This document shows, in pieces, positions 1 through 22,685 of a stretch of 27,662 nt of DNA. Origin of the DNA: an uncultured Candidatus Saccharibacteria bacterium. Lineage in GTDB: Bacteria > Patescibacteriota > Dojkabacteria > SC72. Both the position numbers and the translations under genes were made by a program. The stretch is taken from assembly GCA_964500025.1 (NCBI GenBank), contig CAZCMQ010000003.1:1-27662 (forward strand), read 5' to 3'. The notes under the pieces are model-generated. The model saw only the letters and a program-made list of their open reading frames with translations, made no database searches and had not been told where the DNA came from. How positions within the stretch are numbered: position 1 is the stretch's first letter; each line of letters opens with the position of its first letter.

Positions 1-429
1 GCTAAGAAGTATCAATCCTTTTATTATTTCTTTGAAATTTTGTGCTGTATAGTATGCAACCTTTGATGCTCCCAGAGAGGCGCCTTGAAGCCATACTTCT
101 TCATATCCGAGTGCTTCTGCTTTCTCCACCCAGGCGTTTATATCATGGGTACAGTCTTCAAATTTTTCATAAGCGTTTCCAATGTGTTTAAATTCTCCAT
201 CAGTTGTGTAGAAGGGGGTTATTGCATGTGTTCCTCTGTGCTCTACTGTGAGGAAAGCGATTCCACTTTGAGGGTATTGCTCTGACATGGATTGCAGATA
301 AGGCTCGGAGTATAAATCGCTTGCCATTCCATGTATTGAAATGATTATTTTTTTAGTAGGAGTGGATGGTTCAAAAAGGATTCCTGTGAAAGTAAGTTTA
401 TCTTTTGTATTTGTTGTTATAAATCTCAT
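1..429 (-). CDS. alpha/beta hydrolase, partial; the C-terminus runs off the window edge. Absent from the ORF track because no stop codon lies inside the window.
   Basis: A manual minus-strand translation from ATG at 429-427 gives 143 uninterrupted codons: MRFITTNTKDKLTFTGILFEPSTPTKKIIISIHGMASDLY...VWLQGASLGASKVAYYTAQNF. It has a GxSxG nucleophile elbow (GASLG) preceded by the HG oxyanion-hole motif (IHGM), typical of the alpha/beta hydrolase fold. Confidence 0.55.
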   Translation of the reverse strand, partial: MRFITTNTKDKLTFTGILFEPSTPTKKIIISIHGMASDLYSEPYLQSMSEQYPQSGIAFLTVEHRGTHAITPFYTTDGEFKHIGNAYEKFEDCTHDINAWVEKAEALGYEEVWLQGASLGASKVAYYTAQNFKEIIKGLILLS

Positions 430-434
430 AACTA

Positions 435-450
435 AATTCTAGCAGAATCT
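435..450 (-). promoter_or_regulatory. palindromic 15-nt motif (ATTCT-AGC-AGAAT core) 7 nt upstream of the ATG of the hydrolase gene, containing a TAGAAT -10-like hexamer on the coding strand
   Basis: AATTCTAGCAGAATCT at 435-450. A near-identical copy lies at 2291-2306, 8 nt upstream of the ATG of ORF 1579..2283. Confidence 0.4.
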
Positions 451-486
451 GTTGCAAAGGTTTATTCTTAGATATGAGAGAGTTTA

Positions 487-1575
487 CTAGTTTACTTGTT
501 TTATTTTGAGAAACTCTAACAACACCTCAGTGAAGACTCCTAGTGACTCTAAATCCACCCACTCATCAGCGACATGCGGCTCTGAACTATCAGGCTTAAT
601 CATAAGAACAGGAATATCTCTGTCAGCAAAAAATCTTCCATCGCTTGCGCCATGCGCTTTGTAGAAGTTAGATGTCTTTCCTTTCTCTTCAATTACCTTT
701 TTAAGTTTCTGAACCATGGGATCGTCCTGAGGTGTAAACATACACGCACCTCTACTTTTAGTCTCCATCTCGACGTTAAATTCATCACAGATATCTTGAA
801 CTTCTTTTTCTAATTGCTCAAATGCATATTTTTCTGTAAATCGCATATCAATACCCATTTTTGCCTCTGCTGGAACTTTATTTCGTGCATCTCCACCGCT
901 AATCATTCCTAGGTTTATACTTACATCCCACCTTTCTTCATCTTGAGGAATTGGATACTTTTCTGAAAGCTTTTTGTAAACAGAGATTAGTTTTTCGATT
1001 GCATTCTCACCTTGCCATGGTCTCGATCCGTGTGCAGGAATTCCCTTTGCAGTTACATCAAAGTGGAATACTCCTTTTTCTGCAATTACAATATCAAAGT
1101 CATTTCCTCCATCTGGTACAAAGGCATACTTTGATGTGTATCCTTCTTCTTTGAGAAGGTATTCAACACCGTCAAATCCTCCTATTTCTTCGTCTCCTGT
1201 GAGCATTAGTGCAACTTTTGTATTGTTTCCTGAATCTGGTTGTTGGAGCATTGCATATATCATTCCTGCAACAGTTCCCTTCATGTCACTTGTTCCTCTT
1301 CCATGCATCTTGTTTCCTTCAATTCTTGGTGTGAAGTCTTGTTCTGGAGCTGGGACTACATCAAAGTGTCCGTTTAGGATTATGTCAAAGTCTTTTGTAT
1401 CTTCCGTTGAGATCACGATGGAATATTTTCCATTATTCTCAAATTCTTTTACTACAAATCTCTCATCGAAAAGACTTTTAATGTAGTTTCTACACTTGAG
1501 TATTTCATCAGGCTTATCTGAGGTTGTTTGAAAGGAAACTAGCTTTTCTAAGATTTCGGTTAGGGATTGTTGCAT
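487..1575 (-). CDS. M20 family metallopeptidase (ArgE/DapE-like deacylase)
   Basis: 362 aa. It has the family-typical HGRGTSDMKG motif and the metal-binding H/D/E pattern (LNGHFDVVP ... MLTGDEEIGG). Confidence 0.85.
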   Translation of the reverse strand: MQQSLTEILEKLVSFQTTSDKPDEILKCRNYIKSLFDERFVVKEFENNGKYSIVISTEDTKDFDIILNGHFDVVPAPEQDFTPRIEGNKMHGRGTSDMKGTVAGMIYAMLQQPDSGNNTKVALMLTGDEEIGGFDGVEYLLKEEGYTSKYAFVPDGGNDFDIVIAEKGVFHFDVTAKGIPAHGSRPWQGENAIEKLISVYKKLSEKYPIPQDEERWDVSINLGMISGGDARNKVPAEAKMGIDMRFTEKYAFEQLEKEVQDICDEFNVEMETKSRGACMFTPQDDPMVQKLKKVIEEKGKTSNFYKAHGASDGRFFADRDIPVLMIKPDSSEPHVADEWVDLESLGVFTEVLLEFLKIKQVN

Positions 1576-1578
1576 GTG

Positions 1579-2283
1579 TTAATTATACACTACCTTTGTT
1601 CTCTGGAGCTTCCCATCCTCAATGCTGACTGCGTCTAATCTCCCGTCATACATAAGGACTCCAAGATATATTTGGGAATCCTCTGGGACTGTTTCCTCTA
1701 TTGCACGTTTGAAAGAAACAAGCTGATATATATCTTGTATAGAAAGATTGAGTCCAGGCTCTTTTATGCCAAATTTGCTTTTGATCTCTTGAGAGATTCT
1801 ATTTGTGAGTGTTTGTGATTTATCTTTCTCTGTAATCTTTGGGTGTGTATGACCAAGTATGTAGATATTTCTTTTATCATTAACTCCGTTGTTGATACTT
1901 TGACCTAATAGTTCTGAGTCAATTTCGACATCTTTGGGTTCAAGCACCTGCCCTTTTCTATATAGCATGTCTATATTGGTAATATTTATTGCTGAATTAG
2001 TTGATGTACCCGTTAACATATATGAGTATTCCAGGGCTGACTCTGGATCATTGATAATTTCTAGATAAACTGAGAGATGCTGCTTAGGAGTGTCTGAGGT
2101 TGTTATTAGATCTCCAGTTTCTTCTATTTTCTCAATTGGAATGGGGATGTTGCTTTTTGACTCAAAATCCAAGAGTGTATAGTCTTTAGTTACTTTATCA
2201 ATCAAATCTGCAAAGCCGCTGTTATTTAGTACTTCTAATGTCTCGTCCTTTGGGTCAAGTAGGTTTTCTTTTTGTTCTGTCAT
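1579..2283 (-). CDS. hypothetical protein, acidic, with a YILGHTHP segment reminiscent of a degenerate JAB/MPN metal-binding strand
   Basis: 234-aa ORF with no recognisable family. The NIYILGHTHPK...S motif resembles the HxHP core of JAMM domains, but the spacing is off by one and the Asp is missing. Confidence 0.45.
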   Translation of the reverse strand: MTEQKENLLDPKDETLEVLNNSGFADLIDKVTKDYTLLDFESKSNIPIPIEKIEETGDLITTSDTPKQHLSVYLEIINDPESALEYSYMLTGTSTNSAINITNIDMLYRKGQVLEPKDVEIDSELLGQSINNGVNDKRNIYILGHTHPKITEKDKSQTLTNRISQEIKSKFGIKEPGLNLSIQDIYQLVSFKRAIEETVPEDSQIYLGVLMYDGRLDAVSIEDGKLQRTKVVYN

Positions 2284-2290
2284 ATCTTAT

Positions 2291-2306
2291 ATTCTAGCAG
2301 ATTCTA
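2291..2306 (-). promoter_or_regulatory. second copy of the palindromic upstream motif (ATTCTAGCAGATTCTA)
   Basis: 14/15 identity with 436-450 and at the same position relative to a minus-strand start codon. It also overlaps the stop codon of ORF 2304..2582. Confidence 0.4.
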
Positions 2307-2582
2307 TTTTCTTGTTTTAATCCAAAGCTTCTTGAAAAAGGAGAGAGATAGGGTGGAGAGAACGAATCCTACTGTCGGTACAATGGCATTTATCCATGGA
2401 TTAACTTTCAAAACGAAATGGAAGTAAGTTGCTAGTGCGAGGTAGGTGAGTACTGTTATTGCGATTTTTCGTGCAAGACTTATTTCCCATTCCTTATCCA
2501 TTTCAACTTTCTTGTTTCTTTTCTCAATCTTTGCAATTCTTTTTTCAAGTTGAGAGATGCTTTGTAGTTTGCTGTTTCGCAT
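2304..2582 (-). CDS. small membrane protein (N-terminal charged/coiled segment plus two predicted TM helices)
   Basis: 92-aa ORF. Hydrophobic stretches IAITVLTYLALATYFHFVL and IVPTVGFVLSTLSLSFF. It sits tightly packed in a co-directional gene block. Confidence 0.4.
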   Translation of the reverse strand: MRNSKLQSISQLEKRIAKIEKRNKKVEMDKEWEISLARKIAITVLTYLALATYFHFVLKVNPWINAIVPTVGFVLSTLSLSFFKKLWIKTRK

Positions 2583-2593
2583 AAGAGATTATG

Positions 2594-3079
2594 TCAGCTA
2601 GTAATTTTGTTAGATCTTTTTACTTTATACCCTTTGCCAAGTGAATTCCATGGCAAATCTGGTTTAAATTCTGGAAAACTCTCTAAAATCCATTGCGCAT
2701 ATGTATTACTGTTAGGACCTAGGTATTTATAAATGTTTTTAAAAGGGTAGTTTGTCGATGATTGAAGAATCATATCTACCATCTGTTTTACATATGAGTA
2801 CTCATCTCCTGTTGCATAACCTCGCAGTTCTGCTTTCCAAGATAGATTTTTTCCCATATGGAATATGTCGCTGCCGATAAAAGGAGGGGAGTAGTCCTTG
2901 GTTACAAATTTTTTCTGAGCAGCTTTAACTAGTGTAATTTCCCATCTGGAAATATCTCCTTTGTTGTTAACTACAAACCAAGGGTGTTTGATGAAGCTGA
3001 AGGGTATTACAGAGTTGGAAGTGAATAGAAATACTTGGTACTTGGAGGGATCTAAAAGATGTTTGTACTCTCTGCGCAT
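2594..3079 (-). CDS. hypothetical protein
   Basis: 161-aa ORF, Trp/Tyr-rich, with no motif I can assign. Co-directional with its neighbours and separated from them by 12-14 bp gaps. Confidence 0.45.
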   Translation of the reverse strand: MRREYKHLLDPSKYQVFLFTSNSVIPFSFIKHPWFVVNNKGDISRWEITLVKAAQKKFVTKDYSPPFIGSDIFHMGKNLSWKAELRGYATGDEYSYVKQMVDMILQSSTNYPFKNIYKYLGPNSNTYAQWILESFPEFKPDLPWNSLGKGYKVKRSNKITS

Positions 3080-3092
3080 AAAGATTATATAA

Positions 3093-3548
3093 TTAACTGC
3101 TTTTCTGTAGGTCTAAAACTTTCTGTGTCGCGAATTCGTCGGCCTCTGTTTCCAAAACCTTTACTTCACTATCCTGCTGAAACCTTTTTAATCTCCCATC
3201 TTTATCTTGTAGAAAATGTTTGTACTCATGATAAATTATAAATGCAAGTTGAAATGGTCTGTTGTCAAGAATATTCATCTTCGTAAACAACTCTCTTCTA
3301 TCTTCCTTTACATCTTCAAGAACATTCTCAATCCCTATTTCTGTGTTTGGACAGGCAAGAATATTTGGTGATACATACCGTATTTCATGTAAGGTCTCGT
3401 CCTCATAGGCTAAGATTGTCATGTCATTTCTAACCTGCTGGTCAGTCGATTTCCAAACTGCAAGCAGTGATGTCGGAATAGGTTTGCTGCCGGTTTCATA
3501 GCTAGGAATAGAAATCGAAATTTCCTGTTGCCTTTTATTCATGACCAC
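3093..3548 (-). CDS. ImmA/IrrE-family (Peptidase_M78-like) zinc metallopeptidase domain protein
   Basis: 151 aa. IIYHEYKHF (HEXXH) is followed 22 residues later by ETEADEFATQKVL. This matches the ImmA/IrrE signature HExxH ... E.EAN.FA..hL, with the third zinc ligand Glu. Confidence 0.6.
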   Translation of the reverse strand: MVMNKRQQEISISIPSYETGSKPIPTSLLAVWKSTDQQVRNDMTILAYEDETLHEIRYVSPNILACPNTEIGIENVLEDVKEDRRELFTKMNILDNRPFQLAFIIYHEYKHFLQDKDGRLKRFQQDSEVKVLETEADEFATQKVLDLQKSS

Positions 3549-3614
3549 ATACTATCATGATAGCGTATTATGGAAAATAGAAACGGCAGATACGAGTCTG
3601 GAATCCAAGAAAAG

Positions 3615-4358
3615 CTAAAGGTATGCTGAAATGGCTGTAAATTTCTTGGTTAAAGTTATCTCCGGAATCTCTGGGTGACTTTTAGATAAACTATTGATTA
3701 TTGCATAGGTTATTAACCTCACTGTATATATAGTATTTTGTATCTCCTCTTCTGTTATGAAAATCTCTTGTCCTTGCTTTATATCTCTGACCGTTTGTTT
3801 ATTTGTGATGTCGACCGTTTTCTCTTCAGTCAAGTTTAGTATTGATGTTTTGACTTCTTGTCCATCAATCATCCCCTGTATTGAGATTAAAATAAGTTTT
3901 AAATCCCTTCGTGCAGAAGAAGCCCTGTGCCGAATATCATTCCTTATGAAAACTAGTTGTTGGCTTGTTGATTTTATTTCATCATCAAAATCGCAGATTT
4001 TATTAAGCAACTTGGTACTATTCTTTATTCCTCTGGCCTCCACCAGAGCTCCTTCATATTCAAGATTGTTTTGTGCAAGACTCGTTTTTAGTGCGAGTAA
4101 CTCCTGCAGAGTTTCTTCAAAGGAATCAATGATGCTCTTGAATGTATTATTGATTTGAGTTTTCCTATCAACATTACTTGTATTAGGTTGCAAGGGTATG
4201 TAGTCTACGACTTCTTTATGTGTTATCGCATTACTAGATAATGACCTAACCAAGGCATTGTGATATGTATCTAAGCTAGTTTCTAGTTTAGACACCACTT
4301 CAATTGTTTTTGTCTGATAATCCATAGCTTTGGAAAAGTTTTCTAAATGGCGGGACAT
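3615..4358 (-). CDS. hypothetical helical protein with an RNxxxH (HEPN-like) motif
   Basis: 247 aa. FIRNDIRHR (R139-N-x3-H144) lies in a predicted helical region. The ORF is flanked by a ~25-bp imperfect direct repeat (3588-3606 and 4359-4380). Confidence 0.45.
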   Translation of the reverse strand: MSRHLENFSKAMDYQTKTIEVVSKLETSLDTYHNALVRSLSSNAITHKEVVDYIPLQPNTSNVDRKTQINNTFKSIIDSFEETLQELLALKTSLAQNNLEYEGALVEARGIKNSTKLLNKICDFDDEIKSTSQQLVFIRNDIRHRASSARRDLKLILISIQGMIDGQEVKTSILNLTEEKTVDITNKQTVRDIKQGQEIFITEEEIQNTIYTVRLITYAIINSLSKSHPEIPEITLTKKFTAISAYL

Positions 4359-4499
4359 ACGAGTCTGGGACCTAATATCCCAAGTGAATTATACAGAAAA
4401 TTAGATAAAAGAGACAGTATAAAAGAGGGAGGAGTATCTTTCTTATGCCATAAATCTGCGTAATGTTAGATCCTCATCACAGCTTTAACGACCAAGATT

Positions 4500-5228
4500 C
4501 TATTTTTCAGGGTAGTCTTTCTGTATCTGGGCTTTTAACCTGTTATTCTCATCCTGCAAGGCGAGTAGATCTTTCTCAAAGGTTTCAATAAATTCTATAG
4601 ATCCTATATCTTTGTCCACTTCATAAAGGAGATTCGTTACTCCTAATATTATATTAGACGCTTGCCATAATGCTGTTTTAACATGGAACTCGTTCTCATA
4701 ATCAGGAAAAGGCATGTGTGCGACCTTTTTTTCGAGTTTAAAATTTCTATGTGCCTCTACAAGGTTTGAATGAGAAGAATTCTCGTTAATTGCGTCTTTC
4801 ATCCTTTTGATTGCATCTGAACCATGGCTAAAGTTATCTGAGAGCCATTGATATTGCTTTTTCCTAAGTTCTTGCGTGGACTTTATTATCCCGGTTTCAT
4901 CTTCTACTACGAAGCCTTCCTTGTCAGGATTGGCAATTGCATATGCAGCACTAGCTGAGGCTTCTAGGACCTGTCTGAGATTCATCATCGCTTGCGTATT
5001 TTGAAGGCGTAATATCGAAAGGACTGCAAGCAAGTGGTGCTTTCTTATCTGTCCCAAGAATGCCATAAATATAAATCTTGAGACATCAACACTGACAATA
5101 AACTGTTGTAGGAAGTTGTAGAAACCAATCGCATGTTGGTAGTGTTCACCGTAACGCTTTTGTGCATCAAGCACCATTAATCTCTCGCTCTCAACGATAT
5201 TTTCAAAAGTATCATCTTTGTACTGCAT
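4500..5228 (-). CDS. hypothetical helical protein
   Basis: 242-aa ORF, co-directional. No assignable motif. Possibly resembles Abi-associated helical domains, but I could not verify that. Confidence 0.45.
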   Translation of the reverse strand: MQYKDDTFENIVESERLMVLDAQKRYGEHYQHAIGFYNFLQQFIVSVDVSRFIFMAFLGQIRKHHLLAVLSILRLQNTQAMMNLRQVLEASASAAYAIANPDKEGFVVEDETGIIKSTQELRKKQYQWLSDNFSHGSDAIKRMKDAINENSSHSNLVEAHRNFKLEKKVAHMPFPDYENEFHVKTALWQASNIILGVTNLLYEVDKDIGSIEFIETFEKDLLALQDENNRLKAQIQKDYPEK

Positions 5229-5360
5229 TCTGGTAAATTACTGCAACATTATATAGAGTATTATAACCAAGTTTGGAGAACTCCTCTATTGGTAGGGTAG
5301 ATGTAGAATAGTCAGAAAGAGCCCAAGAATTCCAGGGCCTAGAAAGCTAGAATCGTAGAA

Positions 5361-5744
5361 TTATTTTATGGTGCTCTCTATTTCCAAATCTATTATGTCT
5401 ATTGATTTCTGCATTGCTTCGCATATTTCCATATACCACATATGGGTTTCATGAACGCTATGCTTCTTTTTGCTAGTAAACTCACTTACCTTCTCTAAAA
5501 CGGATACTGGAAAGGCTGTATTAATTTTGTCTACTAAATCATGTGGATATTTCCCGGATAGCATTGCATCTAATAGCTCACTTTTTACCTTGTTATAGAC
5601 AGATTCCAGTCTAGATCTCTTATCCTTCAGAAAATCTACCTTTAATGTCTTTTTCCATTTTTTGTATTCAATTAACTGTACAATCACTGGGACGATGCTT
5701 GCAATTATTCCACCAACTATAGTTGCTAAGATTGTTTCTGACAT
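5361..5744 (-). CDS. hypothetical membrane-anchored protein (single N-terminal TM)
   Basis: 127 aa. N-terminal TILATIVGGIIASIVPVIVQLI. Its start codon lies 21 bp from the 3' end of tRNA-Asp. Confidence 0.4.
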   Translation of the reverse strand: MSETILATIVGGIIASIVPVIVQLIEYKKWKKTLKVDFLKDKRSRLESVYNKVKSELLDAMLSGKYPHDLVDKINTAFPVSVLEKVSEFTSKKKHSVHETHMWYMEICEAMQKSIDIIDLEIESTIK

Positions 5745-5764
5745 ATAGCGGATTGTTAATTAAA

Positions 5765-5841
5765 TGGCGGAATGGACGGGACTCGAACCCGCAACCTTCG
5801 CAGTGACAGTGCGATGCTCTAACCAATTGAGCTACCACTCC
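5765..5841 (-). tRNA. tRNA-Asp (anticodon GTC), CCA encoded
   Basis: Manual cloverleaf: acceptor GGAGTGG/CCATTCC, D-stem GCTC/GAGC, anticodon stem TCGCA/TGCGA with loop CTGTCAC, T-arm GCGGG-TTCGAGT-CCCGT, discriminator G, then CCA. Confidence 0.9.
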
Positions 5842-5939
5842 AAATTCCTGCAAAGTATATCAAAACAAACGTAACTGCACAACATACGCTATAGCAAAAA
5901 TATATTGTTGCCTCAGACTTTAAGTGTTACACTCTCCCA

Positions 5940-6827
5940 ATGCTCTCCCAGATATTTAGAAACAAAAAGAATATAGAACTCTTCAACCACACCCTAATCC
6001 TCACAGATGAACAGCTGAACATAACAAAAGTTGAGGTAGGAACGGGTAAAATTCTAAAAGACCTTCAAGGAAACTTCATTGACTCAGTCTCAAACGGTTT
6101 CAAAAATAAACTCAAATATGAGATAGATCGGCTTGGACCAAGAAGACTGTGCATATCACTTGATATACAGTTAGATACAAACATGGGCATGATGCCATTT
6201 AAGCTAATCATCACAAGAAACAATGAGGGACTGCAAATAATTGCGGTTGAAATGACTGAAGCACTACGAATGAAAGAAGAAACCGAAGACCTTTACTATC
6301 TAGCATTTTTTGACCCCCTGACAGAACTTCTCAACAGACGAGGCTACTACCTCATGGCAATCAACCTCATTCAAAGGGCTGCAAGAGATGGGCATGGAGT
6401 CGGAGTCTTGCATATAGATATGGATGCACTAAAACAGATTAATACAGACGAAGGACATAAAGGAGGGGATAGCGCAATCAAAGAGTTAGCTGAAATTGTG
6501 CGTAGGGCAACAAGAAAAACAGACGTTTTGTCAAGGTTTGGAGGTGATGAGTTTGTAATATCTTTTGAAGTAGATCCCAAAAAAGATTTCACAATTGAAG
6601 ACATGTCTGAAAGACTACTTAGATACTCAAGAGCAAATAAAGGACACAGAAGCACACTCTCTATTGGAGCTCACTTGATTAAAGCAGGCAGAGTAAAGGA
6701 GATGGATGAATCTAAAGATATTCAGAAAGAATTGGAGTACGAAGTATCAGTAGCTGACAAATATGGAAGACTTGCCAAGAAACTGGGCAAAGATAGATAT
6801 ATCACAAAAAAGATATATAAACCCTAG
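5940..6827 (+). CDS. GGDEF-domain diguanylate cyclase with an uncharacterised ~130-aa N-terminal domain
   Basis: Contains DPLTELLNRRGY, the intact active-site RFGGDEFVI, and an RxxD I-site (RKTD) 5 residues upstream of GGDEF. Confidence 0.85.
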   Translation: MLSQIFRNKKNIELFNHTLILTDEQLNITKVEVGTGKILKDLQGNFIDSVSNGFKNKLKYEIDRLGPRRLCISLDIQLDTNMGMMPFKLIITRNNEGLQIIAVEMTEALRMKEETEDLYYLAFFDPLTELLNRRGYYLMAINLIQRAARDGHGVGVLHIDMDALKQINTDEGHKGGDSAIKELAEIVRRATRKTDVLSRFGGDEFVISFEVDPKKDFTIEDMSERLLRYSRANKGHRSTLSIGAHLIKAGRVKEMDESKDIQKELEYEVSVADKYGRLAKKLGKDRYITKKIYKP

Positions 6828-6829
6828 GA

Positions 6830-7168
6830 TTATGCTGAGTGCTTAGTTAAAGCATTCTCATAAACACCCTTTGGCTGTACACCAATGAATGTTTCAACTA
6901 ATCCCCCGTCTTTAAACAGTAATACAGTTGGAATACTCATAACCTGATATTTCTGTGTCGTCTCAGGATTCTCATCGACATTAAGTTTCTTCATCTCAAA
7001 TTTTCCAGCGTTTTCGTGGTAAAGCTCGTGCAAAATAGGTTCAAGCATATGACATGGCTGACACCATACGGCCCATAAATCCACTAAAACTAAACCCTTT
7101 GAATTTAACACCTCACTCTCAAACTGAGAGTCAGTAATATCGAAATCATGACTATGACCGTTATGCAT
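6830..7168 (-). CDS. trxA: thioredoxin
   Basis: WCQPC active site (LVDLWAVWCQPCHML) and the thioredoxin-fold pattern throughout. The start is taken at the internal Met (MHNGHSHDFDITD...). The 50 upstream codons of the 6830..7318 track ORF have no homology and would overlap the divergent TsaC start. Confidence 0.85.
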   Translation of the reverse strand: MHNGHSHDFDITDSQFESEVLNSKGLVLVDLWAVWCQPCHMLEPILHELYHENAGKFEMKKLNVDENPETTQKYQVMSIPTVLLFKDGGLVETFIGVQPKGVYENALTKHSA

Positions 7169-7214
7169 TGTATTAGTGGTATAATTTATATGTTTTAGTA
7201 TAGCACAGCCGTCA

Positions 7215-8321
7215 ATGCCCAAGATAGTAAAACTAGAAAAAAACAACTTAGAGCAAGTATTAAACGAAGCCGTTGAGGTAATTAGAAACGGTGGACTTGT
7301 CGTATATCCATCTGACACGTGCTATGGAATCGCAACAGATGCAACTAATCAAGATGCCGTAGACAGATTGAAAAAATATAAACAATTTAGGGGGCAAAAG
7401 CCAATCTCAGTAAATGTTGCATCAAAAGAAATGGCTTCTGAATATGTAAAAATAAATGAGACAGCACAAAACCTGTATGACAACTACATACCAGGTCCGA
7501 TTACAATAATCTCTGAAAGCCTCGGTAAACTAGCAAATGGGGTCCAATCAGACTGGGGAACAGTAGGAGTAAGAATCCCAGACCATGAGGTTCCAGTTAA
7601 GCTTGCTCAAAAATTTGGAAAGCCGGTAACTGCAACATCTGCAAATGTTTCGTACAAAAGCCTCCCATACAGCATAGAGTCATTATTTAAATACACGCCT
7701 AAGAAAAGTTTGGAACTAATTGATCTAATAATAGATGCAGGAGAACTCCCTAAGAATGTCCCTTCTACTGTTTTGGACACCACCATGAACTCCCTCCAAC
7801 TCTTGCGAGAAGGCAAAATGGAATTTGAAGACGCTGTTAAAAAGTCCAACCTCTACAAAACTGTCACAACACAAACTGCACAGGAAACAATTGAATTTGG
7901 AAAAGAAATAGCACAGTACTTTGCTTCAAAGCATGACAATGGCTCACTCGTTTTTGCATTAAGTGGTGAGCTTGGAGCAGGAAAAACCCAGTTTACCAAA
8001 GGAATTGGAGAGCACCTTTCAGTAGAAGATATGGTTAACTCCCCAACCTACACCATTATCAACGAGTACCGATACAATGACGGAGAGAACGAGAGAACAC
8101 TTGCCCACATGGATACATGGAGAATTGCTGATGTGGAAGAATTCAAAAGATCTGGATTAAAAGAATACTTGGAATCAAGTGATATTGTTGTAATTGAATG
8201 GGCTGACAAATTCTTCCATGAGATTGAAGAGATTGTAAAAGAGTTTGGTGGAGTATTAGTCAAAATTAATTTTAAGTATCTCTCTGAAACAGAAAGGGAG
8301 ATTTCAGTATATGAGTCATAG
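7215..8321 (+). CDS. tsaC-tsaE: fusion of TsaC/YrdC/Sua5-like threonylcarbamoyl-AMP synthase domain (N-term) with TsaE/YjeE P-loop ATPase domain (C-term)
   Basis: N-terminus: GGLVVYPSDTCYGIATDA ... VGVRIPDH (YrdC fold). C-terminus: ALSGELGAGKTQFTKGI ... SPTYTIINEY ... HMDTWRI (TsaE Walker A and SPT motifs). Confidence 0.85.
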   Translation: MPKIVKLEKNNLEQVLNEAVEVIRNGGLVVYPSDTCYGIATDATNQDAVDRLKKYKQFRGQKPISVNVASKEMASEYVKINETAQNLYDNYIPGPITIISESLGKLANGVQSDWGTVGVRIPDHEVPVKLAQKFGKPVTATSANVSYKSLPYSIESLFKYTPKKSLELIDLIIDAGELPKNVPSTVLDTTMNSLQLLREGKMEFEDAVKKSNLYKTVTTQTAQETIEFGKEIAQYFASKHDNGSLVFALSGELGAGKTQFTKGIGEHLSVEDMVNSPTYTIINEYRYNDGENERTLAHMDTWRIADVEEFKRSGLKEYLESSDIVVIEWADKFFHEIEEIVKEFGGVLVKINFKYLSETEREISVYES

Positions 8322-9369
8322 AATACTAGCTGTAGATACAAGTTGTGATGAAACATCCGTTGCGGTTGTAGATGGTCGAAGGGTTCTTTCAAGTGTGCGC
8401 TCTTCCCAGGTAGATCTGCACAGCGAGTGGGGTGGTGTTGTCCCAATGATTTCAAAACGAGCTCATGAGGAGAATATCCAAGGCGTATATGAAGAGGCAT
8501 TGAGTAAAGCTAAGCTCACAATACAAGATATTGATTACCTTGCTGTTACATACGGCCCAGGACTTGCAATTGATTTGGAAGTTGGGATTGAGTTTGTAAA
8601 GGAATTGGCTAAGAAATATGATAAGAAAGTAGTTGCAATAAATCATATGGAAGGACACCTCCTTTCCTCCCTAGTTCTTAATTCAAAAGGAAACGGACTG
8701 ATCTCCGATGAAAAGCTTCCTGAAATATTTCCGGCTCTTGCCCTTCTCGCTTCCGGAAAACATACCGAAATTGTTCATGTAGAAAAGATCGGAAAGTATA
8801 GAAAGTTGGGTCAGACTTTAGACGATGCTGCAGGTGAGGCTTTTGACAAGGTTGGTAGAATGTTGGACTTTGGATATCCCGGTGGTCCTGTTGTTTCAGA
8901 GTTTGCCAAAAAGGGTAAAAGGGGAATTATTGAACTTCCAATTCCTATGGCTAAATCAGGAGACCTGAATTTCAGCTATTCCGGATTAAAAACAGCTTGT
9001 TTGTACAAGATTAAGGAATTGAAAGAGTCAGGTGTTCCTCAAAAAGAGTGGATCTATGATTTCTGTAGAAGTTTTGTGGATGTTCTCACTGAGTCATTGA
9101 AGATTAAGCTGTCTAAGGCTATTGAGATGAATTCGGATATTAAGAGTGTATTAGTTGGTGGTGGAGTTTTTGGAAGTGAGTATATTTTAAGAGAGGTTGG
9201 ACAGGTAGTTAAGTCATATGGATTGGAGTATCTGTATCCTGAGAAGGAGTATAGGACGGATAATGCTGCTATGATTGGTATTGCAGCACATTTTAATATT
9301 CTTGAGGGAAATGTTTTGAGTGAGGAAGAGTTGGAAGGATTGGATAGGGACCCGAGACTGAGTCTTTAG
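8311..9369 (+). CDS. tsaD: tRNA N6-adenosine threonylcarbamoyltransferase TsaD (Kae1/Qri7/YgjD family)
   Basis: ILAVDTSCDETSVAVV N-terminus and the HMEGH metal-binding motif (AINHMEGHLLSS). There is an 11-nt overlap with the upstream gene (ATGAGTCATAG), suggesting translational coupling. Confidence 0.9.
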   Translation: MSHRILAVDTSCDETSVAVVDGRRVLSSVRSSQVDLHSEWGGVVPMISKRAHEENIQGVYEEALSKAKLTIQDIDYLAVTYGPGLAIDLEVGIEFVKELAKKYDKKVVAINHMEGHLLSSLVLNSKGNGLISDEKLPEIFPALALLASGKHTEIVHVEKIGKYRKLGQTLDDAAGEAFDKVGRMLDFGYPGGPVVSEFAKKGKRGIIELPIPMAKSGDLNFSYSGLKTACLYKIKELKESGVPQKEWIYDFCRSFVDVLTESLKIKLSKAIEMNSDIKSVLVGGGVFGSEYILREVGQVVKSYGLEYLYPEKEYRTDNAAMIGIAAHFNILEGNVLSEEELEGLDRDPRLSL

Positions 9370-11733: not shown

Positions 11734-13224
11734 ATGGATGGAGTCACCGGCAGAATAATGGACTCGAAAGAAGTCCTAAAATTGTATCGTGATACAGTTA
11801 AAAACTCTCCACCTCTCACCAAACTTAAAAGCAGTATAAAAAATCCCGGAGGCTCATATCGCCCCAATACCATTTCTGTAGAAGACGTATATTTTGGAGA
11901 TTCTGGAAAAGGATCTGTTGTTGCAAAATACAACAATATTCTTGCTAAAGATATGAAGCTGGTTTCACTCCGCTTTAATGGAGGGGCTAACGCGGGTCAC
12001 GAGACTATGTTTAATGGAAAACTTGTTGTTACTCATCAACTCCCAACTGCAGTCGCAGCACCTGGTGCTGTTGCAATAATTAGTAGGGGAATGTTAATCC
12101 ACCCTGAAGATCTTCTTGTCGAAATAAATGAAGTAAAAGAAGTTTTCTCTGGCATCCTTCCAGGGCAACTACTAATAGACGAAAGAGTCACCCTTGCACT
12201 TGATACACACAGGGCATTTGAAGGCGTGTTAAATGGTATAACCACAGGAGGAAGAGGATCCACCGGTCGAGGAATCGCAACGGGTTACTCAAGTCACTAC
12301 GAGAGATTCCCTGTTATTCTAAAAGACCTGCTTTCCCATAGATGGGAAGATATTTTTAGAGCACACTACAGAATATATGAGAAGCTAGTCCTCGGATCTT
12401 CAAACTCCCTTCCACTTTCTGAAATTGAAGTTCTAACCTATTCAAAAAACAAGGGTGAGAAAAGAAAGGTAGGAGACGAAGATACCTTTATATCGAGATT
12501 AAAACTCGCTCGTTCAGAAATTAGGCGTTACAGGGTTGATAACATGCACGACGTTATCAAGCAGGCTTGGCAGGATACAAAAGTAGCTGTAACTATTGAG
12601 GGCGCACAAGGAGCTGGTCTTGATCCGTATCATGGTGTCTATCCCGATGTAACATCCAGTAGACCAATGTCGCGCTTTATGAATGATGCTACATACAACA
12701 TCATTCTTCCTGAAGATATTCTTTTTAGAGTAGCTGTCATGAAAACAACATACATGTCCAGTGTAGGCAGAAGAGTTCTTCCTGATATGCCAGATGAGGA
12801 GAAGATAAAATGGATACAAAGTGCTTTTGATGAAAGGGGAAGAACCTCTGGAAGGTTAAGAGATATATATCCTGTTTCCATACCTATTGCCCAATATCTA
12901 AGAAGGGCGGCTGGTTATACATGTATTGCCGCAACGCACCTTGATGCTTCAAAAGTTGATTCCGATATTGAAGTTGTTACTCACTACACGAAAAAAGATT
13001 CTGGTGAAGAGGGACCATACCTTCCTTATCAAGATATCCTTGATGAATTTGATCCAAACTTTGTAAAATTTAGCGGTTGGGATGGTGAGGAAGTAAAAAC
13101 TATTCATAACCCTAAGAATTTGCCTTTGGAAGCTCTGCAGTATCTTCACTTCTTGGACAAAACAATTGCCCCTGTTGTTATGGCAACAACAGGCCCAGAT
13201 TTAGAGGACTATATTCTCTGGTAG
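11734..13224 (+). CDS. purA: adenylosuccinate synthetase, divergent, with a ~45-aa N-terminal extension
   Basis: YFGDSGKGSVVAKY (P-loop, GDEGKGK-like) and NGGANAGHE (GGxNAGHT). 496 aa compared with roughly 430 in typical PurA. Confidence 0.8.
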   Translation: MDGVTGRIMDSKEVLKLYRDTVKNSPPLTKLKSSIKNPGGSYRPNTISVEDVYFGDSGKGSVVAKYNNILAKDMKLVSLRFNGGANAGHETMFNGKLVVTHQLPTAVAAPGAVAIISRGMLIHPEDLLVEINEVKEVFSGILPGQLLIDERVTLALDTHRAFEGVLNGITTGGRGSTGRGIATGYSSHYERFPVILKDLLSHRWEDIFRAHYRIYEKLVLGSSNSLPLSEIEVLTYSKNKGEKRKVGDEDTFISRLKLARSEIRRYRVDNMHDVIKQAWQDTKVAVTIEGAQGAGLDPYHGVYPDVTSSRPMSRFMNDATYNIILPEDILFRVAVMKTTYMSSVGRRVLPDMPDEEKIKWIQSAFDERGRTSGRLRDIYPVSIPIAQYLRRAAGYTCIAATHLDASKVDSDIEVVTHYTKKDSGEEGPYLPYQDILDEFDPNFVKFSGWDGEEVKTIHNPKNLPLEALQYLHFLDKTIAPVVMATTGPDLEDYILW

Positions 13225-13279: not shown

Positions 13280-15547
13280 ATGGCTCGAAACTTATATTCT
13301 CAAGAACCGGTAGTTATAAACTCAGTATATAAAGATACTCAGTCTTCTCCTACAAAAAAGTATCTTGAAATAGCAACTACTAATGAGAATAAGTTGAAGG
13401 AAATTCGCAGGATTCTGAAGGATTTCGAGATAATTGGAAAGTCTCTAGATATAGAGGAGATACAATCATTAAATTGGTCAAGGGTTGCCTCCGCTAAGGC
13501 AAAAGCAGCATATGAAGCAAATGGGTATAATCCTATTTTAGTAGAAGACACCTCGCTTGAAGTAAAAGGTCTTGATGGCTTCCCTGGAACTTATGTTAAT
13601 GATTTCTTCTCAACCGCTTCTATGAGAAAGGAGGTTGCCCAAAATTGGCTTAATGGAAAAGATAGATCCGCAATTGCTAAAGTAACCCTTGCCATCTTTG
13701 ACGGTAAAGAAGCTTTCATTTTTGAGGGAAATTGCGAAGGTAAAATTTCCGAAACTCCTATGGGTATGAATGGCTTTGGATGGGATGACATCTTTATCCC
13801 AAATGGTCAGCCAAAGGGTGAAAAGAAAACATTTGCACAGATGAATTCTGAGCAAAAGGATAAGTATTCGATGAGAGTGAATGCTTTAAAGAAATTTCTT
13901 AAGAGTCCTCCAGTTTTGAACTACAAAGTTTTTAAACTTCTTGAACCTTTTGACCAAGAGATGCAACGAGTTAGACTAAAGGAATTGAAGGATGAGACAG
14001 CTATTAAGTTCGCGTATACTCTCGAAGCGATCGAGGGTGATAATGAAGCGAATAATCTTTTAACTGCTCCTAACTATTCTGAAGTTTACTTAGAAGAGAA
14101 TGCCTATTTTTCTAGATTTTTGCAAAAGAAAAATAGTAAAAGCATAGGATTAATGCTGACTGATACTGATCGTACACACATAAAGTTGCAGAAAAATGGT
14201 TATCCAGTCCTTTGGCAAATGGGTCCAGAGAGAAGGCACCTTGCCTTGGCAGAAAGGGTTGAATATTTTACTGAAAATCAGAGTAAAGATGCTCATAAGA
14301 TATTGGATGAATTGGAAAATAAAAAAGAAAGTTTCCCAAAGAGGTCTAATAAGAGATCTATTACTATAGATAGATCTTTAGGGTTTGTCGGTGGAGATGT
14401 TGTAACTCGTGCTTCTGCAGTAAAGGAAATTGGTTATAAGAAATTTGCATCAGAAAAAGAAGTGAGCAGAACGAAGGCTTCAAAATCTGGGCTTTTCAAT
14501 ATAATTGGGAAGTATGCAAGAAGTATTTATTCAATTGGTTGTCTTCCTTGGGTTTCTGGTTGGAGAGATGTGATTATTACCGGTGCAGTCGGCCATATGC
14601 CTGTTTTTGTACACAGGAATAATCTCAATGCGATTGATCTTCAGAATCAAATTGATCTGATTAACGATGCGAAAAAAGCTATAAAAAGTTTAGGTCTTTC
14701 AAAAAAAGCTCTTGAGAGGGCGTATAATAATATCGGTGCGGCGGTAGGTACAAATCCTGTCGAGGATAGGAAAAAAGCTAGGAGGCTATATGATGAAGCA
14801 GGTGTGAAATTATTTAGGATATACACAATAAACTCGGATCCTAGGGTTGTTCAAACAGCACGAGCAATTAGAGAAGAACTAGGGGAAGATGTAGAGATAT
14901 TTGTTGGTCAGTTAGTTGATAAAAGACAGGCGTATGAATTAATTGTTGATGATATTAAGATTGACGGTTTGATTATTGGTCACGGTGGTGGAAGAGTCTG
15001 TACATCTGCAACGAATGGCATGGCACTTAGCACACTTGAAGAAATTTATTCGATCGTTACTGATAGTGCATTTAATAATACTAGTGTACTTGTTGAGGGT
15101 GGTTTAGGTAGTCATATTGGAAGTTCACTTATTATGGGAGTTGATGGCATATTGCGCAATGGACAATTTGCAAGCTGTGTTATTGAGCAGGGTGACCTAT
15201 TTTTTGAACATATGAATGGAAAGCCTTGTCAGCCATACCATGGTAGCGCAAGTGCTGCAACTATGATTATTGAGTCATACAATCCTGAGAATGCTAAGGG
15301 ACGATTATTTGCTAGTGGAAGGGCTAAAAATGTAGAAGGTAAGCCTGGCTACATTTATTATGAGGAAAAGGGTAACTCAATGTCGTTCTATGTAAATGAA
15401 TTCAAACACTATGCGGCGAGGACTCTTGCAGATTTAGGTGTTGAAAGTATCTGGGAATTGAGAGAGTTTGTAGCAAATACAGATGAAGAGATATTTAGAG
15501 AGGTTACGCCAGAAGCATCAGTTGTTTCAGGAGCTTGGAGGAACTAG
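13280..15547 (+). CDS. multidomain protein: N-terminal Ham1/RdgB-type non-canonical purine NTP pyrophosphatase (ITPase) domain, an uncharacterised middle region, and a C-terminal IMPDH/GMP-reductase-like TIM barrel with catalytic Cys loop
   Basis: N-terminus: ATTNENKLKE ... VEDTSLEV ... GFPGTYVNDF (ITPase motifs). C-terminus: IGHGGGRVCTSATNGMAL (compare IMPDH VGIGPGSICTTR) ... VLVEGGLGSHIGSSLIMGVDG (compare IADGGI..SGDI.KA.A.GA). 755 aa. Confidence 0.7.
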   Translation: MARNLYSQEPVVINSVYKDTQSSPTKKYLEIATTNENKLKEIRRILKDFEIIGKSLDIEEIQSLNWSRVASAKAKAAYEANGYNPILVEDTSLEVKGLDGFPGTYVNDFFSTASMRKEVAQNWLNGKDRSAIAKVTLAIFDGKEAFIFEGNCEGKISETPMGMNGFGWDDIFIPNGQPKGEKKTFAQMNSEQKDKYSMRVNALKKFLKSPPVLNYKVFKLLEPFDQEMQRVRLKELKDETAIKFAYTLEAIEGDNEANNLLTAPNYSEVYLEENAYFSRFLQKKNSKSIGLMLTDTDRTHIKLQKNGYPVLWQMGPERRHLALAERVEYFTENQSKDAHKILDELENKKESFPKRSNKRSITIDRSLGFVGGDVVTRASAVKEIGYKKFASEKEVSRTKASKSGLFNIIGKYARSIYSIGCLPWVSGWRDVIITGAVGHMPVFVHRNNLNAIDLQNQIDLINDAKKAIKSLGLSKKALERAYNNIGAAVGTNPVEDRKKARRLYDEAGVKLFRIYTINSDPRVVQTARAIREELGEDVEIFVGQLVDKRQAYELIVDDIKIDGLIIGHGGGRVCTSATNGMALSTLEEIYSIVTDSAFNNTSVLVEGGLGSHIGSSLIMGVDGILRNGQFASCVIEQGDLFFEHMNGKPCQPYHGSASAATMIIESYNPENAKGRLFASGRAKNVEGKPGYIYYEEKGNSMSFYVNEFKHYAARTLADLGVESIWELREFVANTDEEIFREVTPEASVVSGAWRN

Positions 15548-18414: not shown

Positions 18415-18495
18415 CGTTATTTGTATAAACTTAAACAGTATATTTTTGCATTTAACTGTCTCAGTTGCAAGATTTCCTTTGTGATATAATTAATT

Positions 18496-21152: not shown

Positions 21153-22685
21153 ATGCAAGAGCAATATCTAAGTCTTGGTAACAAGGATGTCCTAAACGGA
21201 CAATACCTGCTAGCCGTATTCAAAATAGTACCTTATGGTGATGAATCAATAGAAAGTGCTGCAACCGAAGCAGCTGCAGAATCTTCTACTGGATCAAACC
21301 TAAAAGTTTCTTCAGCAACAAACTACTCAATGAATATTGATGCGCTTGTATATGATATAGATAAAGAGAGGAGCCTTGTCTATATAGCATACCCATGGAT
21401 TATGTTTGATAGAGGTGGGAATATTCAAAACATCCTTACCTTCCTTGCTGGAAATGTTTTTGGAATGAGTAACCTTAAAGAGTGTAAGCTTCTTGATGTT
21501 TGGTTCCCACCACAGATGCTTGTGCAGTACGATGGACCAAGTTACACCCTCGATGACATGAGAAGATATCTTGATGTATACGACAGACCAATTCTAGGAA
21601 CAATCATTAAACCTAAAATCGGACTAACTTCAACAGAGTATGCTGAACTTTGCTACGATTTCTGGGTTGGAGGCGGTGATTTTGTAAAAAATGACGAACC
21701 TCAGGCTGATCAGTTCTTTTCTCCATTTGAAAAAATGGTTGATAGTGTAAGAGAGGCAATGGACAAAGCCGAAAAAGAAACAGGACGAACTAAGGTTCAC
21801 TCATTTAATGTTTCTGCAGCAGACTTGGAAACTATGGTTAGGAGAGCAAGGTATGTTGTGCAGACAATGAAGCCTGGTAGTGCATCTCTTTTAATTGATG
21901 GAATCACTGCAGGTTGGAGTGCTGTACAGACACTGAGAAGAAATTTCCCTAATACCTTTATTCACTTCCACAGGGCAGGGCATGGTGGATTTACAAGAAA
22001 AGAAAACCCAATAGGATATACAGTTCCCGTAATGACGAAGTTTGCCAGACTTGCCGGTGCATCGGGTGTGCATACTGGTACAGCGGGTGTTGGAAAAATG
22101 TCAGGAGATGCCCATGAGGATATCACAGCAGCACATCAGGCCCTTAGATTCTGTGCAGATGGATGGTATTTTAGGCAAGTATGGTCAGAAGTTCCATCAA
22201 GAGACACAAATATTCAGGAAATGATTTCTAAAGAGAAAAAAGTTTGGGAGATGGGTGCTAGAGAACTTGCTAAAATGAGAAGGACTAAAGCTCTTAGTGC
22301 AGAGGGGCTTGAAGAACATACTAACTGGAGAGTAATTCCAAAAATGTCTCCAATTGTTTCTGGTGGGATCAACCCAGTATTACTTCCAGAGTTCTTAGAT
22401 GTAATGAAATCAATTGACTTTATAATTACAATGGGTGCTGGGGTTCACTCACACCCAATGGGAACTACTTCTGGTGTGAAAGCAGTTTTACAAGCGTATG
22501 AGGCATGGTTGGAAAACGTACCACTTGAGGAGTTTGCACGTGATAAAGAGGAATTGAGAGTTGCGGTTGAATTTTACAACAAGTACGGAACTCAAGCTCA
22601 TAAAATGAAAAGTGATAGTTCTCAGGTAGAAAATCAAAACACTAGTGGTGAGGTTACTTCACCAATTGAAGATCCTACGCTTTAG
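21153..22685 (+). CDS. rbcL: ribulose-1,5-bisphosphate carboxylase/oxygenase large subunit, form II/III-like (as described in CPR bacteria and archaea)
   Basis: Alignable with RbcL throughout: AAESSTGS, GNVFG, IIKPKIGLTSTEY (K175/K177), GGGDFVKNDE (K201 carbamate site plus D/E Mg ligands), HFHRAGH (H294), HTGTAGVGKMSGD (K334), PIVSGGINP (S379-G-G), MGAGVHSHPMGT (G403/G404). It has a ~25-aa insertion before the SGG loop and a ~30-aa C-terminal tail. Confidence 0.9.
   Translation: MQEQYLSLGNKDVLNGQYLLAVFKIVPYGDESIESAATEAAAESSTGSNLKVSSATNYSMNIDALVYDIDKERSLVYIAYPWIMFDRGGNIQNILTFLAGNVFGMSNLKECKLLDVWFPPQMLVQYDGPSYTLDDMRRYLDVYDRPILGTIIKPKIGLTSTEYAELCYDFWVGGGDFVKNDEPQADQFFSPFEKMVDSVREAMDKAEKETGRTKVHSFNVSAADLETMVRRARYVVQTMKPGSASLLIDGITAGWSAVQTLRRNFPNTFIHFHRAGHGGFTRKENPIGYTVPVMTKFARLAGASGVHTGTAGVGKMSGDAHEDITAAHQALRFCADGWYFRQVWSEVPSRDTNIQEMISKEKKVWEMGARELAKMRRTKALSAEGLEEHTNWRVIPKMSPIVSGGINPVLLPEFLDVMKSIDFIITMGAGVHSHPMGTTSGVKAVLQAYEAWLENVPLEEFARDKEELRVAVEFYNKYGTQAHKMKSDSSQVENQNTSGEVTSPIEDPTL

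Follow-up and report, generated by a model that had tools for sequence, protein, structure and literature searches.

Whether a tight run of unrecognised genes beside a tRNA gene has to be one system is a question raised by contig CAZCMQ010000003.1 of an uncultured Candidatus Saccharibacteria bacterium (assembly GCA_964500025.1), whose entire 27,662-bp sequence is the window analysed here. Seven open reading frames (ORFs) on its minus strand, designated O1 to O7, occupy the stretch from the 3′ end of tRNA-Asp to a gene for an M20 peptidase, 1.5 kb from one contig end. An earlier note had taken them for a candidate conflict or defence island. Our analysis suggests a different arrangement. The seven genes probably represent a two-layer mosaic at a variable locus anchored by tRNA-Asp, and not one multi-gene system. 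The first layer (approx. 4347 to 5765) would comprise O7 and O6, flanked by tRNA-Asp on one side and by a decayed duplicate of its 3′ end on the other. The second layer (1579 to 4358, probably extended by the M20 gene at 487 to 1575) would comprise O5 to O1, located in a slot between the conserved element that carries this duplicate and a conserved alpha/beta-hydrolase gene. Loci bearing homologs that were used for comparison are labelled L028, L031, L034 and so forth.

Seven genuine genes beside tRNA-Asp

The seven ORFs are genuine genes. All of them have positive in-frame codon log-odds of 0.14 to 0.27 bits per codon (0.27 for O1, 0.22 for O2 and 0.14 for O5) in a model trained on the other genes of the contig, and in each case the annotated frame outscores the other five. 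The claim of seven co-directional minus-strand genes that separate the M20 peptidase gene from the tRNA-Asp 3′ end was thus correct. The window from 4934 to 5880 recurs with 100% identity in an independent Logan assembly of another run, and the exact O7 sequence is also present in a Logan assembly. The block begins 20 nucleotides (nt) beyond the tRNA-Asp 3′ end and neighbouring genes are separated by gaps of 3 to 141 nt. At the E-values used, six of the seven block ORFs lack a Pfam family, whereas 19 of the 23 other contig genes scanned have a Pfam match. Thus, the concentration of unrecognised genes in the block is real. The term ORFan, which had been applied to all seven, fits O1 and O5, for which no homolog was found, and nearly fits O4 with only three homologs, but it does not fit O3, a DUF3750 protein, or O6, which has at least 221 homologs.

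As stated in the earlier note, no described defence system is matched. PADLOC-DB 2.0 gave no significant match for the block ORFs, the sub-threshold ones being O4 to Lit/U41 (0.004–0.01) and O7 to Cas6a (0.009). PHROG matches of the block ORFs were insignificant, and scans of viral contigs with O1, O3, O4, O6 and the O6-family profile revealed no relatives. Searches with hidden Markov models (HMMs) placed none of the seven in a mundane metabolic family.

A decayed tRNA 3′-end repeat within the block

The proximal anchor of the locus is tRNA-Asp (GTC; 5765 to 5841, minus strand) with an encoded CCA, predicted by ARAGORN and matching the Rfam tRNA model with 72.6 bits. Directly after O6 follows a conserved non-coding element (4347 to 4434, minus strand) that includes the stretch CCAGACNCGTATGTCCCGCC. 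It is 79.5% identical to its counterpart in the related locus L028 (8395 to 8472), compared with approx. 66% for coding DNA, and, outside the tRNA, it is the one non-coding sequence for which conservation between the window and L028 can be detected. The element is also found in L031 at 4215 to 4289. In the window it is a single-copy sequence, no second copy being detected. Its 5′ half is promoter-like (TTTTATACTGTCTCTTTT...). Its 3′ half, CCAGACTCGTATGTCCCGCCA at 4347 to 4372, is a decayed repeat of the 3′ end of tRNA-Asp. The ATG of O5 lies inside the element.

The evidence for this copy comes mainly from the relative. In L028, the 3′ half of the element matches the T-arm and the acceptor 3′ end of tRNA-Asp together with 25 nt of downstream flank, and the score of 41 is significant: 200 null trials averaged 25.9 ± 2.5 and none exceeded 36. 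The copy in the window is homologous to the elements of L028 and L031, so that a repeat of the tRNA 3′ end exists, via the L028 ortholog, at the distal boundary of the O7–O6 segment. Our proposed reading of the 3′ half, as far as sequence comparison reaches, is that of an att-like or pseudo-tRNA boundary. A search for such a repeat at the ends of the block had been suggested. It does occur after O6, but not at the far end of the block: the best match to the tRNA 3′ end within positions 1 to 5740 is located at 4344 to 4353, inside the block, and none was found near 1579 or 487. An att-like repeat at 4347 to 4372, in the midst of the seven genes, speaks against the idea that the block is one defence or conflict unit.

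A small RNA or a tRNA-like fold was considered for the element and rejected. No conserved RNA structure was found, the consensus energy being −6 kcal/mol with no covariation, and Rfam finds only the tRNA itself. The 5′ half, TTTATACTGTCTCTTTT, occurs twice in L028, at 8396 to 8412 and at 9331 to 9347, the latter copy being located just upstream of the TATAAT promoter of a divergent gene for a 225-amino-acid protein. This second copy hints at an operator or an UP-element-like site, instead of or besides a remnant of the tRNA promoter.

A variable slot between conserved anchors

Two or three related genomes with approx. 60% amino-acid identity were available for comparison. The order in L028 is TsaD (68% identity), TsaC-TsaE (55%), thioredoxin (59%), tRNA-Asp, the O6 homolog (62%) and the conserved element, and the tRNA-Asp genes of window and L028 are 85% identical. 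Beyond the element, L028 carries unrelated genes for proteins of 225, 135 and 426 amino acids and a Band_7 protein, followed by the alpha/beta-hydrolase gene (11947 to 12810). The latter corresponds to the hydrolase gene of the window, of which only the 5′ part is present (1 to 429, minus strand) as it runs off the contig end; tblastn aligns residues 1 to 142 with 52% identity and blastn gives 72.5%. In L031, three metabolic genes lie between the O6 homolog and the element. A RhuM-family gene is located further along the L028 locus.

O6 is 62 to 75% identical in two related genomes, and its 62% identity to the L028 homolog is comparable to the 55 to 68% of the housekeeping genes. Since tRNA-Asp and O6 are syntenic in L028, their adjacency is old. 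O1 to O5 and O7 are absent from L028. In particular, O7 has no tblastn match in L028 or L031, and no remote similarity was found between the block proteins and the alternative cargo of L028. The expectation of a variable locus therefore holds for the slot, which differs while its anchors are conserved, but not for the tRNA-Asp–O6 pair, which is shared with the relative.

The flanks also require revision. On its far side, the variable slot is anchored by the hydrolase gene, which is conserved. This gene is the truncated one at the contig end; the gene across the tRNA (5940 to 6827, plus strand) encodes a GGDEF-domain protein (Pfam GGDEF, 2e-23) and not a hydrolase. The gene for the M20/M25/M40 peptidase (487 to 1575, minus strand; Pfam Peptidase_M20 with 7e-31 and M20_dimer) is not conserved in the lineage and has no match in the 18-kb syntenic L028 locus. 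In a collection with one genome per species, searched via exact 8-residue peptide patterns, all matches of the peptidase are 26 to 38% identical and come from unrelated phyla, the best ones (37 to 38%) from archaea (Methanosarcinales), Desulfosarcina and Krumholzibacteriia. The M20 gene thus probably belongs to the variable cargo and not to a housekeeping flank, and it may have been acquired horizontally. The GGDEF gene, located between tRNA-Asp and the thioredoxin gene, is absent from L028, where the thioredoxin gene directly precedes tRNA-Asp. Judged from this gene order, GGDEF and O7 appear to be further genome-specific insertions at the same tRNA.

O6 belongs to a widespread HEPN-like family

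O6 (4500 to 5228, minus strand; 242 amino acids) is a member of a widespread unnamed family. At least 221 homologs with 40 to 75% identity were found, and 206 or more metagenome loci match the protein. The source names of the homologs include Candidatus Veblenbacteria, Schekmanbacteria and Pacearchaeota, and its members are 40 to 55% identical between bacteria and archaea that carry the labels of different candidate phyla. The predicted O6 model is confident and has a helical core for which HEPN domains top the fold search, with Foldseek scores that are not significant. An alignment of 46 family sequences revealed E15, R74, Q79, R85, Q86, E89, Y126, W128, K144, N148, H153 and D176 as invariant. 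The Rx4-6H motif was not found in O6: R85-Q86 is invariant, and there is no His at +5 to +7 (LRQVLEA). K63-H64 is conserved upstream of this pair and N148/H153 elsewhere in the protein. A 2013 survey of HEPN domains reports such a pattern for the AF0298/AbiV type, families devoid of the Rx4-6H His (PMC3710099), so that its absence does not exclude a HEPN fold for O6.

Profile searches do not place the family any further. The O6 query has no Pfam, NCBIfam or PADLOC match, there is no consistent PADLOC match across the family, and only one of the 46 members matches a curated HEPN profile (HEPN_AbiU2, E = 0.006). The O6 profile retrieved no HEPN entry and nothing significant from the Protein Data Bank (PDB) sequences. 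A tblastn search of phages gave no match, no phage or plasmid match was obtained, and the family was not encountered on any viral contig or in any phage record. O6 can be called HEPN-like, its membership in the superfamily being unproven. It is most likely a stand-alone HEPN-type effector, which would act as an RNA-targeting toxin or abortive-infection protein or, alternatively, as a non-catalytic RNA-binding variant of the AF0298/AbiV type. O6 keeps the invariant Arg-Gln and lacks the Rx4-6H His. A HEPN-type conflict component had been suspected in the block. The suspicion finds support in the HEPN-like O6 family and its genomic contexts, but it had been directed at another gene, O5.

Genomic neighbourhoods of O6 homologs

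At 71 distinct loci, the pair of ORFs closest to the O6-family gene on either side was scanned; 66 of these loci were scanned in bulk and provide the Pfam tally. N6_Mtase, Phage_integrase, Methylase_S and ResIII were found four times each, HsdM_N, SWI2_SNF2, Resolvase/Recombinase and N6_N4_Mtase three times each, and HSDR_N, Fic and HNH twice each. Clustering of the neighbours yielded HsdS in six loci and HsdM in five. Some O6 homologs are placed between hsdM and hsdS of type I restriction-modification (R-M) operons. One of these, L034, has the order hsdM, DUF2321, O6 homolog, a 198-amino-acid protein, hsdS and, further on, hsdR, with RadC, Phd and Bro-N upstream.

Integration contexts recur as well. 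In L055 and L058, tRNA-Ser or tRNA-Gln is followed by the O6 homolog and a large serine recombinase, and in L083 the O6 homolog lies between a tyrosine integrase and tRNA-Thr. The O6-family gene of L060 (8001 to 9789) is arranged tail-to-tail with a reverse transcriptase gene (RVT_1), approx. 1 kb from tRNA-Lys, which may be a reverse transcriptase-associated defence context. A distant homolog on the Caulobacter plasmid pCB4 adjoins AbiEii. No att repeats above the null were found around the recombinase-adjacent homologs in L055, L058, L060 and L083. As R-M, recombinase and tRNA contexts recur, the O6 family behaves as a mobile, defence-island-associated solo gene. O1 to O5 and O7 do not co-occur with O6 homologs in 90 loci. 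Among the block genes, O6 alone has genomic contexts that point to conflict or defence, and only for O6 is such a role plausible.

Apart from the O6 homolog, several uncharacterized genes interrupt the type I R-M operon of L034 (3105 to 10759; JGI Ga0172379_10000087). Between hsdM, hsdS and hsdR lie DUF2321 and proteins of 198, 400, 144 and 290 amino acids, which make this operon a dense R-M-embedded island.

The remaining genes of the block

O1 (1579 to 2283, minus strand) encodes a soluble orphan protein of 234 amino acids. No homolog was found in 5.8 billion proteins, there is no Pfam, NCBIfam, PADLOC or PHROG match, and PDB matches are not significant. The protein contains GHTHP (HTH at 145 to 147) and, approx. 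40 residues further on, LSIQD (SIQD). The proposal of a JAB-like protein is not supported. The JAMM motif of JAB/MPN proteins (E...HxHx7Sx2D) demands a distance of 7 residues and not of approx. 40, JAB, Prok-JAB and RadC do not match at E ≤ 1, and the PDB search returned nothing JAB-like.

Two small membrane proteins had been predicted, and Kyte-Doolittle analysis confirmed both. O2 (2304 to 2582, minus strand; 92 amino acids) has a basic N-terminus and two predicted transmembrane helices at residues 40 to 58 and 64 to 82. O7 (5361 to 5744, minus strand; 127 amino acids), which lies between tRNA-Asp and O6, has one N-terminal transmembrane helix. Neither has a significant family match in the HMM libraries (Pfam, NCBIfam, PADLOC and PHROG).

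O3 (2594 to 3079, minus strand; 161 amino acids) is a minimal DUF3750 protein (PF12570; E = 1.5e-15, 58.5 bits at a cutoff of 25 bits). In an alignment with annotated DUF3750 proteins it keeps the invariant HPW (H32) and GPNSNT (S124). Distant relatives with 26 to 33% identity reside on proteobacterial megaplasmids in non-defence contexts.

O4 (3093 to 3548, minus strand; 149 to 151 amino acids) contains HEYKH at 107 to 111 and, 22 residues later, ETEADEFA at 134 to 141. This HExxH...ExEA[DN]x[FY]A pattern resembles the ImmA/IrrE signature, HExxH...E.EAN.FA, a resemblance that serves as a lead and not as a test. An exhaustive phmmer search of 1.84 billion representatives identified three homologs with 55%, 30% and 24% identity. 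Since they align from residue 3, the ATG at 3542 is the likelier start. Two of the three keep the motif pattern. The closest homolog, P0129 (L032 10001 to 10450, GCA_016182915.1; 55%), has NEHCH in place of HExxH, which is retained in the distant ones; either the first His is dispensable in the O4 family or this copy is inactive. Local matches to Lit are weak (NCBIfam 1.2e-5, 24.7 bits at a cutoff of 274 bits; PADLOC Lit/U41 as given above), and one homolog matches DUF3920 at 3e-5. O4 and its profile produced nothing significant against PDB sequences. One homolog follows VanY and sortase genes, one is located beside a HAD hydrolase gene and one follows an MNT/HepT remnant. The three loci share no recurrent neighbour, and at the locus of the closest homolog no block gene is nearby. 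The assignment as an ImmA/IrrE-type Zn peptidase is supported by the motif, but Peptidase_M78 matches neither O4 (E ≤ 1) nor its homologs (E ≤ 5), and a partner of the Xre type was not found, as no neighbouring ORF has a helix-turn-helix Pfam match. O4 appears to be a zincin-like protein of a very rare family, and the ImmA/IrrE call applies at motif level only.

O5 (3615 to 4358, minus strand) is a predicted all-helical orphan of 247 amino acids with no homolog in 5.8 billion proteins and no Pfam match. Its single-sequence AlphaFold2 model is poor (predicted local distance difference test score 45.6). RNDIRH at 139 to 144 conforms to Rx4-6H with a polar residue after the Arg, and to this extent the RNxxxH helical protein that had been put forward as a putative HEPN RNase exists. 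However, RNxxxH arises in 1.5% of O5 shuffles and is also present in an alpha/beta hydrolase of the same window, which makes the motif-derived HEPN reading of O5 a weak one. We also considered O5 as a diverged paralog of O6 and rejected this idea at an hhalign probability of 0.1%.

Transcription signals

A TATAAT box with at least five of six matches, ending 4 to 12 nt (mostly 5 to 7) before the start codon, precedes 11 of the 30 contig genes, e.g. at 1576 to 1595, 2284 to 2303, 3080 to 3092 and 18476 to 18495. Random positions yielded 1.7 ± 1.25 such boxes, with a maximum of 6 in 1000 trials. Shine-Dalgarno-like motifs were found before 3 of the 30 genes only. This pattern suggests widespread leaderless mRNAs in the organism. 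Boxes with at least five matches are present at the hydrolase gene, the M20 gene, O1, O2 and O3. The M20 gene has a perfect TATAAT box (6/6) 6 nt before the ATG, O1 has TAGAAT 7 nt and O2 CATAAT 5 nt before the ATG. O4 reaches 4/6 (TAGTAT), and O5, O6 and O7 have no box at the 5/6 level. Because several block genes have their own −10 boxes at the start codons, they look separately promoted and leaderless and not part of one operon. A consensus scan for promoters and terminators found fewer sites than in shuffled sequences.

A direct repeat with 18 of 21 identical positions is located at 433 to 453 and 2288 to 2308, immediately before the start codons of the hydrolase gene and O1. Both copies contain the extended −10 box TGCTAGAAT, and the O1–M20 segment lies between them. 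The repeat could reflect a shared promoter architecture or an insertion trace. The number of such repeats is not significant, approx. one pair being expected in 7 kb, and the hydrolase promoter of L028 lacks it.

Other features of the contig

Two gene fusions, Sua5/TsaC-TsaE and Ham1-IMPDH-like, are encoded at 7215 to 8321 and 13280 to 15547, respectively. A RuBisCO large-subunit homolog (21153 to 22685) is found beside nucleotide-metabolism genes and listed with PurA, PurB and enolase. This repertoire of fusions and RuBisCO resembles those reported for small-genome uncultivated bacteria. The thioredoxin ORF (6830 to 7318; 162 amino acids) overlaps the start of TsaC-TsaE by approx. 100 nt. As the 106-amino-acid ortholog in L028 aligns only to residues 61 to 161, the true start is probably internal, near 7150.

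Discussion

In the reading we favour, an ancestor would have acquired O6 at tRNA-Asp by site-specific recombination, the recombinase would have been lost later and O6 retained. O5 to O1 occupy the slot beyond the element. They comprise a zincin motif in O4, a Ser-type papain-like protein in O3 (both minimal and hydrolase-like), one protein with two transmembrane segments and two orphans. Their most likely role would be an accessory one, either in conflict or in the processing of the envelope or of proteins.

Several of our own results weigh against this mosaic. The copy of the tRNA 3′ end in the window matches at 21 of 29 positions, with 10 exact, and is not significant by itself, as 29% of random sequences equal it. 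Because this repeat is weak, the att interpretation leans on L028. Replacement of the slot contents is weak evidence for a hotspot, since synteny is generally eroded at approx. 60% identity. The GC content is flat across the block, no compositional deviation was found, and codon bias is only slightly weaker than in most housekeeping genes, with overlapping ranges. None of the block ORFs has an integrase or recombinase domain in Pfam. Genes for R-M or recombinases are present at approx. one third of the O6-family loci with neighbours, and other copies reside among housekeeping genes. Finally, nothing beyond location and orphan status ties O1 to O5 or O7 to defence. Codon-usage foreignness was dropped as a discriminator, as the block overlaps with the housekeeping genes and the syntenic O6 scores lowest.

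Alternatively, the locus could hold ordinary lineage-specific content without a conflict role, with O6 as a conserved hypothetical gene inherited vertically and O1 to O5 and O7 being fast-evolving small proteins, e.g. for surface or host interaction, such as are common in uncultivated bacteria with small genomes. The old tRNA-Asp–O6 synteny, the divergence of O6 at the pace of housekeeping genes, the native-like composition and codon usage and the lack of mobility genes are all consistent with this explanation. So are the other Pfam-less genes of the contig, the non-defence contexts of DUF3750 relatives and O4 homologs, and the O6 homologs found between housekeeping genes. However, a vertically inherited gene is difficult to reconcile with a family whose members, at 40 to 55% identity, bear the labels of different bacterial and archaeal candidate phyla. 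Unlike a housekeeping gene, O6 recurs in R-M operons and beside recombinases. In the window itself, a tRNA-derived direct repeat brackets O6, and the unrecognised genes are concentrated exactly at the tRNA 3′ end. We therefore regard this explanation as unlikely, though one to be taken seriously.

The location at a tRNA 3′ end, the partial tRNA repeat and the orphan-rich content would also fit if the whole region from tRNA-Asp to the M20 gene went back to one integrative element or prophage that has since decayed, without its integrase and most of the genes by which it could be recognised. O6 homologs that are cargo beside recombinases elsewhere and the RhuM-family gene in the L028 locus fit this picture. 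The position of the repeat does not: it follows O6 and is not distal, with no second copy near 1579 or 487. O6 has no match in phages or plasmids, viral contigs yielded none for O1, O3, O4 and O6, PHROG hits are insignificant, and the composition is native. Moreover, the O6 part is ancient while O5 to O1 are not shared, so that one event cannot explain both, and we consider a single remnant improbable.

A more far-reaching version of the mosaic, in which the element is a reusable landing site for cargo swaps, O5 to O1 constitute an undescribed conflict system and O6 founds a new HEPN-like defence family across bacteria of the candidate phyla radiation (CPR), DPANN archaea and others, is a long shot at present.

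Least probable of all is a novel multi-gene defence or toxin system (HEPN RNase, zincin protease, papain-like hydrolase, JAB-like protein and membrane effectors) inserted at tRNA-Asp as a unit of all seven genes or at least of O5 to O1: tight co-directional packing, the strong concentration of unrecognised genes relative to the rest of the contig, protease-like motifs in O4 and O3, RNDIRH in O5, the adjoining defence-context gene O6 and absence from the relative would suit it, but no two block genes occur together elsewhere (90 O6 loci, three O4-homolog loci), O1 and O5 lack homologs and thus do not represent a conserved system in current data, PADLOC found nothing significant, the JAB (O1) and HEPN (O5) assignments are unsupported, the att-like element separates O6, which is syntenic alone, from O5 to O1, and O1, O2 and O3 have their own −10 boxes.

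If O6 is a functional HEPN-type effector, it adds an unannotated family of at least 221 members, for which there is no Pfam, NCBIfam or PADLOC model, to the stand-alone genes that ride in type I R-M operons and in small tRNA-targeting recombinase elements. Its homologs are labelled as CPR bacteria and DPANN archaea, lineages with poorly known immune repertoires. The locus also provides a concrete example of how an accessory slot can be organised in a small genome, with an old, domesticated insertion that a decayed tRNA repeat marks and, beside it, lineage-specific orphans that appear to be promoted separately. It illustrates that a tight co-directional run of unrecognised genes next to a tRNA does not have to form one system.

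Relation to known systems

Among the proteins of the second layer, O4 shares the motif pattern and weak local Lit matches with ImmA/IrrE (COG2856, Peptidase_M78) and Lit (U49). It differs from them by its size of only approx. 150 amino acids, an unrelated N-terminal half and the small number of three detectable relatives. O3 is the bare core of DUF3750 and lacks both the hydrophobic leader at the N-terminus and the extension at the C-terminus that annotated members from proteobacteria possess. DUF3750 has been described as a papain-like fold with Ser in place of Cys, and the function of the family is not known (PMC10318531). Compared with the HEPN superfamily, O6 is large (approx. 250 amino acids), has extra helices and small beta elements, lacks Rx4-6H and is not covered by a family model.

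The closest parallel for the locus as a whole are tRNA-associated islets, in which attL and attR arise from duplication of the tRNA 3′ end. Like these, the block starts 20 nt past the tRNA and has cargo that differs between relatives, a partial copy of the tRNA 3′ end with its flank, significant in L028, is located downstream of the tRNA, and O6 homologs elsewhere sit between a tRNA and a recombinase. Unlike typical islets, the block has no integrase, the repeat brackets only the 1.4 kb of O7 and O6 and leaves O5 to O1 outside, and the insertion is old and compositionally ameliorated, with a repeat in the window that has decayed to 21 of 29 positions. Both parts of the locus belong to known kinds, a HEPN-like solo gene and a tRNA islet.

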